Shown: positions 3,239 through 21,146 of the stretch, piece after piece | Position numbering within the stretch: the stretch's first letter is position 1 | How the letters are laid out: each line of letters starts with the position of its first letter | From: Acidobacteriota bacterium | GTDB lineage: Bacteria > Acidobacteriota > Thermoanaerobaculia > Gp7-AA8 | NCBI GenBank assembly: GCA_046723495.1 | Contig: JBKOUP010000528.1 | Span: 1-32,775, forward strand | Reading direction: 5' to 3' | Length of the DNA stretch: 32,775 bases | Translations under genes and position numbers: made by a program | The notes under the pieces: model-generated | Databases searched by the model: none | What the model saw: only the letters and a program-made list of their open reading frames with translations | Told to the model about the DNA's origin: nothing

Positions 3239-5730
<2,492 letters not shown>

Positions 5731-8198: not shown

Positions 8199-8274
8199 GT
8201 CATAGGGAACAGGGAACAGGTGACAGGGGCTGAATCGCTACCTGTCGCCTGTCACCTGTCACCCGTACCCTGTT
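8197..8274. repeat. Degenerate heptamer-tandem hairpin (AGGGAAC/AGGTGAC vs GTCACCT)
   Basis: Left arm about 8197-8227, right arm about 8241-8274, 13-nt loop, several mismatches. Confidence 0.75.
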
Positions 8275-13259: not shown

Positions 13260-13334
13260 GGGCTCTCAGCTCTCGGCTCTCAGCTCTCAGGCCCACCCGT
13301 CTCCTGAGAGCCGAGAGCTGACAGCTGAGAGCCC
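13260..13334. repeat. Heptamer-tandem hairpin (GCTCTCA/TGAGAGC) in the mutS leader
   Basis: 32-nt arms 13260-13291/13303-13334, 29/32 complementary, 11-nt loop. Confidence 0.9.
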
Positions 13335-13677: not shown

Positions 13678-13920
13678 ATGACCCGCGACGAGATCGAGCG
13701 CAAGCTGATCGAGATCGTGCGCAAGGAGAAGAGCGACATCCCCGAGGAGCAGCTCACCGCGGCGACAGCGCTGGCCGAGGCGGGCATCGACTCGCTCGAC
13801 GCGCTGACGATCCTCTTTGCCATCGAGGAGGAGTTTCACGTTTCGATTCCCGACGATCAGGCGCGGGCGATGAAGACGTTTGGGGACATGATCGACATCG
13901 TCGCCGGCCTCGTGGAGTGA
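13678..13920 (+). CDS. Acyl carrier protein
   Basis: 80 aa and acidic; GIDSLD phosphopantetheine site; IEEEFHVSIPD. Confidence 0.92.
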   Translation: MTRDEIERKLIEIVRKEKSDIPEEQLTAATALAEAGIDSLDALTILFAIEEEFHVSIPDDQARAMKTFGDMIDIVAGLVE

Positions 13921-13994
13921 ATGCAGAATGCAGAATGCAGAATGCAGAATTCGACGCGCCGCCATTCTGCATTCTGCATTCTGCATTCTGCATT
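13920..13994. repeat. Heptamer-tandem hairpin (GCAGAAT/ATTCTGC)
   Basis: Perfect 31-bp inverted repeat 13920-13950/13964-13994 with a 13-nt loop. Confidence 0.95.
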
Positions 13995-15219: not shown

Positions 15220-15237
15220 TTTGCTAGCATGCCCGGC

Positions 15238-16635
15238 GTGATCGTCGAAAAAAAGCACGTCGACAACTTCACCATTCTCTATGTCGAAGGGTTGATCAAG
15301 CTCGGCGAGAGCGCGGAGTTCTTTTCCGCCGCGCTGGAGAACGTGCTCAAAAACGAGAGCACGAACGTGATCGTCGACTTCACCAAGATCGACTACATCG
15401 ACTCCACCGGCATCGGCGAGCTGGTCGGCTACCTCGGCAAGTTCACGACGCAAAACCGAAAGCTGATCCTCGTCAACCCCTCCGAGCGGATCATGAAGCT
15501 GCTCAAGCTCGCCAAGCTCGACGCGGTCTTCAAGATTTATGGGACGGAGGAAGAGGCGATCTCCGCGGAGAGCGGCCGCGCGGCCGCCCGCGATTTGAAA
15601 CGGGTCATGCAAGTCCTCGCGCGCGCCTACCGCGGCGCGCACGTCGAGTCCTTCCACACCGGCTCCATCGCCGTCGTCGACTCGCTCGGACGCCTCCTCG
15701 CCTTCGCCGGTGACCCGTCGCTGCGCACCTGCGTCCGCTCCGCGGCCAAGCCGTTCCAGGGCATCCCGCTGCTCGAGTACGGCGGCATCGAGGAGTTCGA
15801 TCTCTCCGGCGAAGAGATCGCCCTCACCTGCGCCTCGCACGGCGGCGAGCCGTTGCACGTGGCCACGGCGGCGGCGCTCCTGCGCAAGGGTGAATTCGAC
15901 GAGGAAGACCTCCTCTGCGGCGCGCACATGCCGAAAGACGAGAAGGCCGCCGCGGAGCTCCGCGCCGCGGGCGAGGCGCCTTCGCCGCTGCACAACAACT
16001 GTTCGGGCAAGCACGCCGGGATGCTGCTGGCCACGAAGGTCATGGACGTGCCGAGCGCGCGCTACATCGACGCCGAGCATCCGCTGCAGGTGCTGATGCG
16101 CTCGACCGTCGCCGACTTCGCCGGCCTCGCCGCCGAGGAGGTTCTGATCTCGGTCGACGGCTGCGGAGTCCCGGCGTTCCATCTCTCGCTCTACCGCGCC
16201 GCGTATGCCTACGCGCGCCTGATGGCGCCGGCGGCGCTGGAGCGTTACGCGGAGAGCGCCGCGAACGTGGTCGAGGCCATGACGGCGTTCCCGTACTACG
16301 TCGGCGGCGCCTGGACGATGACCACGCCGCTGATGGAGTCGTTCGCCGGCACGCTTCTGGCGAAGGAGGGCGCGGAGGGCTTCTACGCCATCGGCATCGC
16401 CCCGGAGATGAGCGGGACATTGACCGAGCGCCTGAGGGTCGCCGATGATACGGCCGTGGCCATCGCCCTGAAGATTCACGACGGCTCGATGACCCGCGGG
16501 CGGAACCCGGTGATCCTCCGTACGCTGGAGCTGCTGGGGATCGAGGTGCCGTTGGCACAGGAGTGGCCGGTGTTCAACGTGGTAGGCACGCGGGTGGGAG
16601 AAGTGAAGGCGGAGTTTGAATTGGAGTATTTATGA
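15238..16635 (+). CDS. STAS (anti-sigma-factor antagonist) domain in one ORF with a class 3 (Rhizobium etli-type) L-asparaginase
   Basis: N-terminal DFTKIDYIDSTGIGEL (STAS phospho-Ser motif). From internal ATG 15607: RSAAKPFQ, CASHGGE, NNCSGKH, DGCG and AKEGAEG. GTG 15238 is preferred over ATG 15229 because TGcTAGCAT lies 7 nt upstream. Confidence 0.8.
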   Translation: MIVEKKHVDNFTILYVEGLIKLGESAEFFSAALENVLKNESTNVIVDFTKIDYIDSTGIGELVGYLGKFTTQNRKLILVNPSERIMKLLKLAKLDAVFKIYGTEEEAISAESGRAAARDLKRVMQVLARAYRGAHVESFHTGSIAVVDSLGRLLAFAGDPSLRTCVRSAAKPFQGIPLLEYGGIEEFDLSGEEIALTCASHGGEPLHVATAAALLRKGEFDEEDLLCGAHMPKDEKAAAELRAAGEAPSPLHNNCSGKHAGMLLATKVMDVPSARYIDAEHPLQVLMRSTVADFAGLAAEEVLISVDGCGVPAFHLSLYRAAYAYARLMAPAALERYAESAANVVEAMTAFPYYVGGAWTMTTPLMESFAGTLLAKEGAEGFYAIGIAPEMSGTLTERLRVADDTAVAIALKIHDGSMTRGRNPVILRTLELLGIEVPLAQEWPVFNVVGTRVGEVKAEFELEYL

Positions 16636-16729
16636 AAGCAGAAAGCAGAAATCAGAAATCAGAAATCCTGGCGGCGAACGCGCGAGTGACGCAGCGATTT
16701 CTGCTTTCTGCTTTCTGCCTTCTGATTTC
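16634..16729. repeat. Heptamer-tandem hairpin (GCAGAAA/TCAGAAA vs TTTCTGC)
   Basis: 34-nt arms 16634-16667/16696-16729, 30/34 complementary, 28-nt loop. Confidence 0.9.
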
Positions 16730-17096
16730 CTGCAAGACCGTCGGCGTCTCCACCACCGCCGGCGGCTACTCCGAGGTCGAGTCGACGGTGGCGGCGGAGA
16801 TGATCCTCGACAGCCAGCAGGTCGTCGTCATCGACGTGCGTCCCATCGACGTCTATCGCGGTCCCCGAGGGCACATTGCCGGGGCGCTGAACTCGCCGCT
16901 GGAGACGATCGAGCACCAGCTCCCGCTGCTCCTGCCGTACCAGAACCAGACCGTGCTCGTGTACGGCGACAGCTCCACCGACGGCGCCGTGGCCGCCAAG
17001 GTTCTGAGCGTGGCCGGCTTCCGCAACGTGGTGCTGATCGCCGGCGGCCTTCGCTCCTGGATTGAACATCGCTATCGGACGGTTAACTCGCCGTGA
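16686..17096 (+). CDS. Rhodanese-like domain lipoprotein lacking the active-site Cys
   Basis: VIDVRP..Y...GHIAGALN and GFRNVVLIAGGLRSW motifs; lipobox LISC. Start is GTG 16686 or ATG 16632 (ATGA-coupled). Confidence 0.82.
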   Translation: MTQRFLLSAFCLLISCKTVGVSTTAGGYSEVESTVAAEMILDSQQVVVIDVRPIDVYRGPRGHIAGALNSPLETIEHQLPLLLPYQNQTVLVYGDSSTDGAVAAKVLSVAGFRNVVLIAGGLRSWIEHRYRTVNSP

Positions 17097-18151
17097 TGCG
17101 AAAACTACTCGTGGCCGCCATCGCGGCTTTTCTCCCCATTCTCGCCACCGCCGCTCCCGCCGAACTCGCCGCGCTGAAGGACTACGCGACGCGGGCGCTG
17201 CCGCGCTGTCCGGACCAGAAGATCACCCTCGAGCTCCAGGAGAAGGAGTCGCCCATCGGCTTCATGCCGTACCTCCTCACCCAGACCTCGAGCGACTCGA
17301 GCTGCGGGCGGCAGACGGCGCTGCTCTACTCGCCGACGACGCGGCAGATCCTCATCGGCGCGGTTCTCGAGCTCCCCATGGACACGCGCAGCGTCGACGT
17401 CCGCGTGTCCGAGCGGGCCATGGAGGCGCTCAAGCAGCCGCTCACCGCGAGCGTGTCGAAGTTCCCCCTCCCCGACCGCGTCCGGGCCGTCTCGATCTTC
17501 AAGCAGACGCCGTACGGCCCCTTCGCCTATCACGGCTTCGTCGACGCCTCGGAGCGCTTCCTCGTCGTCGGCTCGCGCGGGAACCTGCTCACGCCGCCGT
17601 CGAAGACGCTCATCGACGCCCTCGAGCTCAAGAACGGCGTCCGCCGCGGCAACACGAAGGCGAAAGCGCAGATCATCGAGCTCTCCGACTTCGAATGCCC
17701 GAGCTGCCGCCACGCCCACATGGACATCGAGCCGATCATCGAGAAGCACCTCGACAAGGTCGACTACATCCGCCTCGACCTCCCGCTCTTCGAGCACCAC
17801 GAGTGGGCCGTGCCGGCGGCCGTGGCCGCGCGGGCCATCGAACGGGTAGCCCCGAAGGAATACTGGAAATACGTGAACTACGTCTACGCGAACCAGGAAG
17901 AGATCGGCAAGCGCAAGTTCGACGACGTGATCCGCGAGTACTGCCAGGACCGCGACATCAACTGGCCGGCCGTGGAGAAGATCTACCGCAACCCCGCCGA
18001 GCGGACGGCCCTGCTCGACCAGGTGTCCCGCGCGTTCGACAACGGCGTCAACTCCACGCCGACATACATCGTGAACGGCCAGATCATGGGCTTCGGCCCG
18101 AAGGGGACGTTCACGATCAAGGCCATCAAGGACGCGCTGGGGTTGAAATAG
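17096..18151 (+). CDS. Secreted DsbA/thioredoxin-fold protein
   Basis: Signal peptide, SDFECPSC, LPLFEHH and GVNSTPTYIVNG (cis-Pro). Alternative start GTG 17093. Confidence 0.88.
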   Translation: MRKLLVAAIAAFLPILATAAPAELAALKDYATRALPRCPDQKITLELQEKESPIGFMPYLLTQTSSDSSCGRQTALLYSPTTRQILIGAVLELPMDTRSVDVRVSERAMEALKQPLTASVSKFPLPDRVRAVSIFKQTPYGPFAYHGFVDASERFLVVGSRGNLLTPPSKTLIDALELKNGVRRGNTKAKAQIIELSDFECPSCRHAHMDIEPIIEKHLDKVDYIRLDLPLFEHHEWAVPAAVAARAIERVAPKEYWKYVNYVYANQEEIGKRKFDDVIREYCQDRDINWPAVEKIYRNPAERTALLDQVSRAFDNGVNSTPTYIVNGQIMGFGPKGTFTIKAIKDALGLK

Positions 18152-20020: not shown

Positions 20021-21078
20021 TCGATGCCCTCCTCACCACACAGGTGCACGACGTCATCGTAGTCGATCCCGGCGTTCTGCCGGAGGCGGAGAAAGAGGGT
20101 CTCGCGGCGCTGCTCGGCGGGGCCGAGGGACTCGTCGAGCTCGGGGCCGCGCGCGCCAGCGATGTAGCGGCCGAGGTCGCGCGTGTTGGCGAAGCGGCGC
20201 TCGGCGAGGAACGAATGCGCGGCCAGGCCGAAGCCGAGATAGCTCTGGCGGCGCCAATATCTGAGGTTGTGCAGGCAGGGGTCGCCGAAGTTGCTGATCT
20301 CGTACTGGGCCAGGCCGGCGGCGTTGAGGCGATCGATCGCTTCGACATAGAGCGAGGCGACGTCGTCCTCGTCGGGCAGCGGCGTGCCGCGGCGGGCCAG
20401 CGCGCTCCCCTCCTCGAGATCGAGCATGTAGAGGGAGAGGTGGCCGGCGCCGCTGGCAATGGCGAGGTCGAGGGTCTGGCGAAAGGACTCCGGCGTCTGG
20501 CTCGGCAGACCGAGGATGAGGTCGAGGCTCGTGCGGACGCCGCCGGCGACGGCGTCGCGGAGCGCGGCGAGAGCGCGCTCGCGCCCGTGCACGCGGCCGA
20601 GGGGACGGAGCTCGGCATCGTGGAACGACTGCACGCCGATGCTGAGGCGGTTGACGCCGAGGGTTTTCCAGAAGTCGATGGCGTCCGGCGTCACGTCCTC
20701 GGGATTGGCTTCGAGGGAGAACTCGGGCCCCGTCATCCTGAGCCGCGACGACGGCGAAGGATCTCCGAATGGCAACGACGTCGCAGCCTGAGATCCTTCG
20801 TCGCGCTTCGCCGACTCAGGATGACGCGGGGACTCGAAGTCGAAGCCGGCACGCAGCGCGGCGACGACGCGCGTCAGGTTCTCGGGTGACGTCCGCGACG
20901 GCGTGCCCCCGCCGAAGAAGATGGTCTCCACCGCCTCCCCCGTCGCGCGCTCCTCGATCTCGCGGACAAGCGCCGCCGTGTAGTCGTCCTGCAATCCGAT
21001 CTTCGTTGAGACGGCGAAGGCGCAGTAGGCGCAGTGGACGCGGCAGAACGGGAGGTGGATGTAGATGCCGGTGGCCAT
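19909..21078 (-). CDS. hemW: HemN-like radical SAM heme chaperone, carrying an in-frame palindromic insertion
   Basis: YIHLPFCRVHCAYC, FFGGGTPS, EANP, NRLSIGVQSF, YEISNF and HNLRYW (HNxxYW). In-frame alternative start ATG 21135. Confidence 0.9.
   Translation of the reverse strand: MATGIYIHLPFCRVHCAYCAFAVSTKIGLQDDYTAALVREIEERATGEAVETIFFGGGTPSRTSPENLTRVVAALRAGFDFESPRHPESAKRDEGSQAATSLPFGDPSPSSRLRMTGPEFSLEANPEDVTPDAIDFWKTLGVNRLSIGVQSFHDAELRPLGRVHGRERALAALRDAVAGGVRTSLDLILGLPSQTPESFRQTLDLAIASGAGHLSLYMLDLEEGSALARRGTPLPDEDDVASLYVEAIDRLNAAGLAQYEISNFGDPCLHNLRYWRRQSYLGFGLAAHSFLAERRFANTRDLGRYIAGARGPELDESLGPAEQRRETLFLRLRQNAGIDYDDVVHLCGEEGIEWMARGLDDGWLRRDGARVAFTPAGFLLSNSYLSQLF
20731..20826. repeat. 96-nt nested palindromic element (RPE/REP-like) inside hemW
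   Basis: Outer perfect 12-bp IR cgtcatcctgag/ctcaggatgacg; inner perfect 11-bp IR cgaaggatctc/gagatccttcg. Confidence 0.9.
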
Positions 21079-21135
21079 GCGGAATGCAGAATGCAGAATT
21101 GCTCCGCTTCTAATTCTGCATTCTGCATTCTGCAT
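21077..21135. repeat. Heptamer-tandem hairpin (GCAGAAT/ATTCTGC), second copy
   Basis: 24-nt arms 21077-21100/21112-21135, 23/24 complementary, 11-nt loop; overlaps the hemW start codon. Confidence 0.92.
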
Positions 21136-21146
21136 TTTCGCGCCGC

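Follow-up and report, generated by a model that had tools for sequence, protein, structure and literature searches.

A dispersed repeat has probably overwritten an older export signal in a conserved lipoprotein gene of an Acidobacteriota bacterium. The gene lies at 16632-17096 of a 32,775-nucleotide stretch (contig JBKOUP010000528.1, positions 1 to 32,775; this whole stretch is called the window here) from a 4.3-Mb draft genome of 530 contigs and 67% G+C, and the element in question is a hairpin of two inverted arrays of seven-nucleotide (heptamer) units at the 5' end of that gene. In the explanation proposed, the gene would encode a prolipoprotein of 154 amino acids, with the hairpin lying within its signal region and translated in full. 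Translation would start at ATG 16632 and be coupled, through an ATGA overlap and a GGAG motif, to termination of the upstream gene, which encodes a STAS-asparaginase-II fusion protein. The purine arm and the loop would then supply a long, positively charged n-region and the pyrimidine arm the hydrophobic h-region and the lipobox (FLLSAFCL-LIS-C34), and after Sec-dependent export Lgt would lipidate Cys34 and LspA cut before it, so that the product would be a lipid-anchored, inactive rhodanese-homology domain in the cell envelope. As to history, the family ancestor would have carried a plain signal, and hairpins with a purine arm followed by a pyrimidine arm would repeatedly have colonised a tolerated site behind the upstream stop, inserting behind the start, with loss of the old h-region where a hydrophobic arm could replace it. 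Some lineages would subsequently have lost the purine arm and the loop, leaving a compact signal derived from the repeat.

The hairpin and the lipoprotein signal

Period-7 arrays are identified by Tandem Repeats Finder (TRF) at 16634-16667 (4.9 copies, 96% matches) and at 16698-16729 (4.6 copies, 88% matches), and together they make a hairpin with arms of 34 nucleotides each, 88% complementary and spaced 28 nucleotides apart. Its RNA fold has an energy of -46.8 kcal/mol, compared with a shuffle mean of -33.3 (z = -4.2; 0 of 200 shuffles as low), and the units GAAAGCA and GAAATCA contain no G-tract. The inverted pair is not accidental, because the genome carries at least 242 such paired hairpins. 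There are 739 period-7 arrays of at least three copies (TRF), which yield 242 adjacent inverted pairs with complementary units, distributed over 29 unit classes, and 255 unpaired arrays. Every unit class occurs in one arm order only, with the pyrimidine arm first in AACTAAG (62/62) and the purine arm first in AGGGCGC (39/39), AAACCAG (29/29), AATGCAG (16/16), AAGGCAG (12/12) and AAAGCAG (8/8). The window element belongs to a family with the unit GAA[AG][GT]CA, all 24 copies of which have the purine arm first, and several of these share a loop that starts with (T)CCTGGCGG or TCCTAGCGG and ends with CCGCCAGGA, the window copy having (T)CCTGGCGG. From the shared loop and the fixed arm order it follows that these are copies of a dispersed repeat family and therefore not a local accident. 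The commonest class, AACTAAG, has stops on either strand (N*ELRTK, LSS*FLV) and cannot be read through in every frame. PF01797, the transposase type associated with repetitive extragenic palindromic (REP) elements (Y1 type), has one weak match in the genome (26.5 bits), with no demonstrated link to the repeats.

Read over three units, the purine arms give KAEGRRQ (AAGGCAG), KAESRKQ (AAAGCAG), KPETRNQ (AAACCAG) and NAECRMQ (AATGCAG), with net charges of 0 to +2, and the complementary arms read LPSAFCL, LLSAFCF, LVSGFWF and LHSAFCI, with mean hydropathies of 1.6-2.4. In any frame the purine arm of such a hairpin reads as a net positive stretch rich in Lys and Arg and the pyrimidine arm as a hydrophobic one rich in Leu, Phe, Ser, Ala and Cys, and a copy placed after a start codon would already have the n-region followed by the h-region. 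In the window, translation from ATG 16632 reads MKAESRNQKSEILAANARVTQRFLLSAFCLLISC, then KTVG..., and the n-region of residues 1-22 carries K2, R6, K9, R18 and R22 against E4 and E11, a net charge of +3; translation from GTG 16686 reads (M)TQRFLLSAFCLLISC, with one Arg in the n-region and the Cys as residue 16. The 3' arm reads FLLSAFCLLIS, so that 11 uncharged residues separate the last charge from the Cys, whose codon comes immediately after the arm. The lipobox pattern is [LVI][ASTVI][GAS]C, with the Cys within the first 35 residues (PROSITE PS51257), and L-I-S-C fits it from either start (Cys34 or Cys16). Much of this anatomy had been described by a first-pass annotation of the stretch, which placed GTG 16686 in the hairpin loop, considered the hairpin open from an ATG overlapping the asparaginase stop, and saw in the pyrimidine arm a hydrophobic core and an LISC motif fused to a rhodanese domain. 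The coordinates (GTG 16686-16688 within the loop, 16668-16695), the reading of the open reading frame (ORF), the arm translation followed by Cys and a match to Rhodanese PF00581 over residues 56-145 (51.2 bits against a gathering cut-off of 22.2, E = 1.8e-13) bear these descriptions out.

Comparison with relatives, which are metagenome-assembled genomes of Acidobacteriota of the class Thermoanaerobaculia, indicates that the predicted product is a conserved lipoprotein. Of the family's 124 genomes, 115 have a single orthologue (four unpublished genomes are counted in this tally), and the alignment starts right at the Cys in 109 of these 115. Junctions between the asparaginase-like gene and the lipoprotein gene were drawn from 112 loci, of which 111 were analysed, one from an unpublished genome being omitted; a Cys stands at the aligned position in all 111 and in 4 outgroups, usually followed by [KR]TVG[VI]S, and 94 of the 111 fit the lipobox expression. 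Lipoboxes of the form L-P-S-C, with Pro at -2, are repeat-encoded at L004, L025, L030, L038, L039, L046, L048 and L050, and this form falls outside the PROSITE-like pattern applied. The genome encodes the processing enzymes, with one match to Lgt (PF01790, 189 bits) and two to LspA (PF01252, 134 and 99 bits). In the window protein the pyrimidine arm is the sole hydrophobic stretch ahead of the invariant Cys. With no other hydrophobic segment available, export of the protein in the manner of its orthologues would require the arm as h-region, and the repeat arm is thus predicted to serve as the core of an export signal of signal peptidase II (SPII) type.

The frame is also conserved across hairpins of different lengths. 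The commonest orthologue junction is an overlap of the lipoprotein start with the upstream stop, as ATGA or GTGA, and the overlap of the two genes is kept in frame at 75 of the 111 junctions. In the window the TGA stop of the upstream ORF (16633-16635) overlaps ATG 16632-16634 as ATGA, and the C-terminus of the upstream protein, ...EFELEYL*, can be aligned to its orthologues. A strong hairpin, defined by a stop-to-Cys distance of at least 80 nucleotides and a fold energy of -35 kcal/mol or lower, is found at 35 of the 111 junctions, of which 27 carry an ATGA, GTGA or TTGA (NTGA) codon at the stop; in 25 of these 27 the frame is open and matches that of the Cys, over 16 different lengths. A strict criterion, which requires inverted heptamer arrays in each half, leaves 24 junctions; the overlap codon is present at 22 of these, and all 22 are in frame and open. 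The strict set has 14 lengths (95, 98, 101, 104, 107, 110, 113, 116, 122, 125, 131, 134, 170 and 173 nucleotides), every one of them 2 modulo 3. The n-regions translated at strict hairpin junctions carry net charges between +1 and +7, and 11-25 uncharged residues precede the Cys. Further, a Shine-Dalgarno (SD)-like GGAG, GAGG or AGGA is present at -16 to -4 of 72 of the 75 in-frame overlap starts, including ATG 16632.

Ancestral signals, turnover and other genes

The older state of the signal can be read from the relatives. Four orthologues from outside the family, three of them in other families of its order and one in a further family of the class, carry short lipoprotein signals free of the repeat behind a non-overlapping stop, and the deep rows of the tree (76 concatenated asparaginase and rhodanese rows, one of them from an unpublished genome, in a quick IQ-TREE search with a midpoint root) are all plain signals as well. 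Since outgroups and deep rows are plain, the repeat did not create export and must have entered a signal that was there before it. The comparison of orthologue N-termini for repeat-free signals that the first-pass annotation had called for thus returns plain lipoprotein signals in both places, and its suggestion that arrays rich in T and C can create or replace export signals is supported here as to replacement and not as to creation. Likewise, its idea that the repeat is a route to relocalising proteins gains no support here, the orthologues being plain lipoproteins already and the location unchanged.

Hairpins of many unit types occupy one site across the lineages, beginning 0-6 nucleotides past the upstream stop, with GAAGGCA-like, AAACCAG, GAATGCA, GAACGAT, GGATGAA, GAATGAA, GACAGCA and GGGCAGT-like units. 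Inspected by eye, hydrophobic pyrimidine arms extend to the lipobox (...LLPSAFCLLLFSC, ...FCILHSVFCILLFSC, ...CCLLSVVCCLSVVFCLTAC), and polar ones (ATCGTTC, read as FIVHRSS; TTCATCC, read as FILHPSS) are accompanied either by a separate non-repeat h-region downstream or by a spacer hairpin before a separate M[KR]K start. Compact orthologues, in which only a heptamer-periodic 3' arm follows ATGA, occur in two relatives of the same genus (MRRALLPSAFCLLVFAC), and compact forms are also found in other genera (MKTSAALLLSAFCFLISAC, MKRTFLLFAFCFLLFSC). The state of having a hairpin within the ORF changes 14 times on the tree, with at least 11 changes forced by well-supported branches; the compact form L129 is nested within a hairpin clade, and the near-identical pair L125 and L132 have completely different signals. 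In the comparisons of L125 with L132 and of L129 with L133, flanking proteins are nearly identical (branch lengths of 0.02-0.03) and the signal peptides unrelated, and in one such pair all units of the array differ in the same way (CCTTCTG versus CTTTTTG). These patterns suggest rapid replacement or homogenisation of the arrays, or recombination at the junction between lineages. A look for sequencing runs that share sequence with the window turned up none recorded as RNA and none of this strain, the best DNA run matching 0.09 of the sampled words. Contigs read from relatives that are 85-95% alike, drawn from four such runs, include two that replace 16569-16699 and 16595-16706 by 75 and 49 letters; these replacements are compatible with compact relatives without the 5' arm and loop and are silent on the strain of the window. 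A duplicated TGA target site on both sides of the 5' arm and loop (ATGA...GTGA, in the window and in genome G011) was considered and rejected, as other orthologous hairpins have no second TGA, and a comparison by eye of L025 with L038 gave no clear pattern of compensatory changes between the arms. GC-rich palindromes that are not built of heptamers also occupy the site behind the stop, at L022 and L069 in the rhodanese family and at L213 and L217 in the cytochrome family described below, where they too are in frame with the conserved start.

Repeat arms are also found in the signals of other genes. The hairpins of the genome comprise 140 with the purine arm first, 98 with the pyrimidine arm first and 4 mixed, and were surveyed for ORFs that are open through the downstream arm and coding-like by their third-position G+C. 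A strict automated test, which looked for an uncharged stretch encoded by the arm together with a lipobox Cys in a coding-like frame, singled out 4 of the 69 hairpins that have the purine arm first and hydrophobic units, and none of the other 173 (Fisher p = 0.006), against 2 matches in frames that are not coding-like, which serve as the control for chance. Inspection by eye places about 12 hairpins in signals of proteins with Pfam domains that indicate export, among them two c-type cytochromes, a sulfatase, an SLT transglycosylase, a SurA_N protein, BatD, an amidohydrolase with a lipobox and a prepilin-type protein. The search of the genome for further signal peptides with seven-nucleotide periodicity, another proposal of the first pass, has these hairpins as its outcome. 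The carriers are on contigs C276, C74, C346, C433, C11, C90, C380, C416, C325 and C15 (loci L193-L203). The sulfatase is a sulfatase-TPR protein, a VWA protein also has a hairpin arm in its signal, and in the prepilin-type protein the hairpin lies within the leader, ahead of the G/FTLVEL site. Other exported proteins of the genome thus rely on repeat arms much as the window protein is predicted to do.

A second family, a cytochrome c lipoprotein, was followed across genomes in the same manner. It has an orthologue in 35 of 41 genomes (a tally that includes one unpublished genome), and 25 loci were read, all of which (25/25) have the lipoprotein Cys and a start of the form M[SFY]RG... overlapping the end of the upstream gene. 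A hairpin lies between start and Cys at 10 of the 25 (by eye): 8 are heptamer hairpins, representing at least 5 unit types, and 2 are GC-rich palindromes. All 10 are in frame. The signal holds an AAACCAG hairpin in the genome of the window and an AATGCAG hairpin in one relative of the same genus, and is plain in the other.

The translation start and competing readings

Although the signal can be read from more than one start, ATG 16632 is most likely the main one, with the full hairpin translated, to judge from the sequences compared. A start at GTG 16686, offered by the first-pass annotation, would leave the 5' arm as an untranslated leader and translate only the 3' arm, into a 15-residue signal (MTQRFLLSAFCLLIS) before the Cys. 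The codon is unpaired in the loop, its product (Cys16, one Arg) follows the usual lipobox rules, an in-frame GTGACG lies in the loop of the G011 hairpin as well, and 17 of the 25 in-frame orthologous hairpin junctions have some usable internal start. However, the remaining 8 of 25 have no usable in-frame ATG, GTG or TTG between the 5' arm and the h-region, and no SD-like motif is found at -16 to -4 before GTG 16686. A GTG start also leaves unexplained why the frame of the overlap ATG is conserved over 14-16 lengths, and all 10 hairpin cases of the cytochrome family keep the frame of a conserved upstream ATG. It is because the frame is kept across these lengths, because 8 of the 25 junctions have no usable internal start and because GGAG precedes the ATG and not the GTG that ATG 16632 is favoured. 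GTG 16686 as the start is in consequence the less likely of the two, and we judge the reading built on it unlikely overall; some additional use of the codon, giving dual starts, may nevertheless occur.

Heptamer arrays within a frame also invite comparison with phase variation, in which gain or loss of a seven-nucleotide unit would toggle the lipoprotein much as the CTCTT repeats of opa genes do. The unit is not a multiple of three, the arrays sit inside the frame, and their lengths vary among related genomes. Slippage by one unit would change the length by 7 nucleotides and so break the frame, whereas the lengths among relatives step by 3, the 22 strict hairpins are without exception in frame, and no 'off' allele was seen among them. 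Moreover, the arrays are short and impure (the 5' arm mixes 2 and 3 units of two kinds, and the 3' arm has 88% matches), and a slippage switch is in our view very unlikely.

Least probable of all, and hardly to be reckoned with, is an untranslated RNA element (a terminator, stabiliser or regulator) preceding a cytoplasmic rhodanese protein that would start at, for example, ATG 16800. Most hairpins of the class are indeed intergenic, and 10 of the 35 strong-hairpin junctions are not in frame and open from NTGA: 8 have no such codon and 2 (L014 and L069) have it out of frame, and 5 of the 10 are 2 modulo 3, which is near chance. At these junctions a separate M[KR]K start follows a spacer; L090 differs in reading in frame from an overlap of the TGATG type. 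Against such an element, the stretch 16731-16799 is conserved as protein, with C[KR]TVG[VI]S at the head of alignments that start from the Cys in nearly all of the orthologues, and this contradicts the downstream start and cytoplasmic location that the first-pass annotation had named as the outcome fatal to its idea. There is likewise no SD-like motif at -16 to -4 of ATG 16800. No terminator was called at the hairpin (16634-16729), no T run follows the stem, and no Rfam family matched anywhere in the window.

Several considerations weigh against translation of the whole hairpin from ATG 16632 and against the history proposed for it. The first is the GTG just discussed, which sits in an accessible loop and gives a rule-conforming 15-residue signal. 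The second is that a stem of -47 kcal/mol beginning 2 nucleotides after the ATG would hinder independent initiation, an objection that translational coupling may answer. Third, the genomes compared are related, so that the frame counts are not independent events, and the 14-16 distinct lengths together with the several unit types are a fairer measure than the raw counts. Fourth, high G+C makes open frames common, and openness alone is weak evidence. A case in point lies elsewhere in the window, where a purine-first hairpin at 13919-13994 (GAATGCA / CATTCTG, 100% matches) stands immediately 5' of a gene for a ketoacyl synthase, a cytoplasmic protein; the ORF is open from ATG 13921 across the hairpin (MQNAECRMQNSTRRHSAFCILHSALAMIRV...), and the Pfam match begins only after the hairpin, at residue 29 and profile position 3. 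The true start of this gene is probably the Met of MIRVAVTG, 3' of the hairpin, and an open frame across a hairpin is therefore no proof of translation. Fifth, 17 of the 111 junctions fail the lipobox expression, mostly with repeat-encoded LLPSC. Finally, the polarity from hairpin to loss of the 5' arm draws on one nested case (L129) and on sequence scars, and the direction of gain or loss within the window's own genus, between the window lineage and the two relatives, is ambiguous.

Gene context and comparison with known systems

The features of the locus are collected in Table 1. The gene for a DsbA/thioredoxin-like protein overlaps the stop of the lipoprotein gene as TGATG, and the tight, family-wide overlap of the rhodanese-like and STAS-asparaginase-II genes suggests a functional link between these two. 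Other heptamer hairpins of the window are found at 1868-1942 (AGTTCTT/AACTAAG), 8204-8263 (AGGGAAC/ACCTGTC), 13262-13333 (GCTCTCA/GAGAGCC) and 21077-21136 (ATGCAGA/ATTCTGC), and an unpaired CTTCTGC array lies at 3704-3735.

Table 1. Features of the lipoprotein locus and its neighbours, in window coordinates
Feature	Position	Strand	Basis or content
STAS + L-asparaginase II family fusion gene	15229..16635	+	ORF; Pfam PF01740 (E 3.8e-17), PF06089 (E 7.1e-98)
SD-like GGAG	16623..16626	+	5 nucleotides 5' of ATG 16632, within the last codons of the upstream gene
ATG, most likely start codon (ATGA start/stop overlap, ancestral junction)	16632..16634	+	Orthologue junctions, frame conservation
5' purine-rich arm, GAAAGCA x2 + GAAATCA x3	16634..16667	+	Reads KAESRNQKSEI, part of the n-region
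Hairpin loop	16668..16695	+	Holds GTG 16686-16688; starts with CCTGGCGG motif; reads LAANARVTQR
3' pyrimidine-rich arm, (TTTCTGC)-like units	16696..16729	+	Reads FLLSAFCLLIS, h-region and lipobox positions -3 to -1
Lipobox L-I-S-C	16722..16733	+	Cys codon TGC 16731-16733; Cys34 from ATG 16632
Mature lipoprotein (predicted), 121 amino acids + stop	16731..17096	+	Rhodanese-homology domain ~16797-17066 without catalytic Cys
DsbA/thioredoxin-like gene, own plain signal peptide	17096..18151	+	ORF; Pfam PF13462, PF01323

The mature part is predicted to be a rhodanese-homology domain that is catalytically inactive and unable to form a persulfide. In alignments, a Gly of the window protein takes the place of the catalytic Cys that PspE and 6mxv have; of 76 orthologues, 74 have Gly there and 2 have Ala, and none of the 76 has any other Cys in its mature domain besides that of the lipidation site. 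All NCBIfam matches fell below the curated cut-offs, and no named equivalog was obtained. The signal peptide of PspE is of the type cleaved by signal peptidase I (Sec/SPI). PspE of E. coli (PDB 2jtq) resembles the window protein in being an exported single rhodanese domain of about 100 amino acids, and the likeness (E = 6.4e-07) is one of mature domains alone; where the window protein, a predicted lipoprotein, has Gly, PspE has the catalytic Cys.

More broadly, hairpins with the purine arm first may be ready-made signal-peptide cassettes that repeatedly overwrite older signals and drive fast turnover of these in Thermoanaerobaculia, an idea that we put forward tentatively, as a possibility we would not yet favour. 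If the idea were true, the cassettes could in principle give export signals to proteins without any, and a stem located at the start codon might make the downstream gene depend on the upstream one for its translation. Signal peptides are usually viewed as slowly drifting and specific to their gene; at the junction studied here a dispersed repeat would supply them, and where its arm is hydrophobic the older hydrophobic core is gone. This case would provide a concrete and testable route from a non-coding repeat to a coding sequence with immediate function, and would account for the misplacement of starts by gene callers at hairpin loci. The natural variants of a single lipoprotein, with the full hairpin, with only the 3' arm or with a plain signal, offer material for studying the effects of n-region length and of mRNA structure on export and on translational coupling.

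Searches of openly available full texts found no paper on heptamer-array hairpins that encode signal peptides. The repeats themselves have counterparts. Heptameric repeats in convergent pairs have been described as GGGAATC in Xanthomonas and GGGGA(T/C)T in Nostoc (Rehm et al. 2015, PMC4692102), with 70 and 75 convergent array pairs capable of forming stem-loops in two Xanthomonas genomes, and the introduction of that paper also cites heptanucleotide repeats of Calothrix. The repeats described here share with those of Xanthomonas and Nostoc the tandem seven-nucleotide units, the short dispersed arrays, the convergent pairs and the high copy number (242 pairs in this genome). As reported there, the Xanthomonas and Nostoc arrays lie mostly just past stop codons or ahead of ORFs; unlike those of the present genome they are G-rich, are studied as formers of G-quadruplexes and show under-representation within coding sequence (PMC4692102). 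The present repeats instead lack G-tracts, fall into 29 unit classes with fixed arm order and include a copy in a conserved reading frame, and the term 'signal peptide' does not occur in that paper.

Two further systems involve export signals directly. In the opa genes of Neisseria, CTCTT coding repeats lie in the region of the leader peptide (reviewed in PMC3960869), and the likeness extends to a tandem unit that is not a multiple of three, located in an export leader, with pyrimidine-rich units encoding hydrophobic residues. As that review describes them, the opa repeats form single direct arrays and serve as a switch that shifts the frame at high frequency, whereas those considered here are short, impure and paired into hairpins, with no out-of-frame alleles among the strict-hairpin relatives. 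The closest precedent for the idea is the fusion of enterobacterial repeat units to ORFs: RU-2, which resembles a miniature inverted-repeat transposable element (MITE), forms part of the predicted signal peptide of YPO1552 of Yersinia pestis, and the orthologues of YPO1552 in other genera have unrelated signal sequences (Delihas 2007, PMC2759123). Those repeat units are 100-170 bp long and of unique sequence, and the cases given in that account are single loci with SignalP predictions (PMC2759123). In contrast, the heptamer hairpins of Thermoanaerobaculia provide a series across a whole family, with conservation of the frame, an ancestral state inferred for the signal and the same arrangement in a second gene family.

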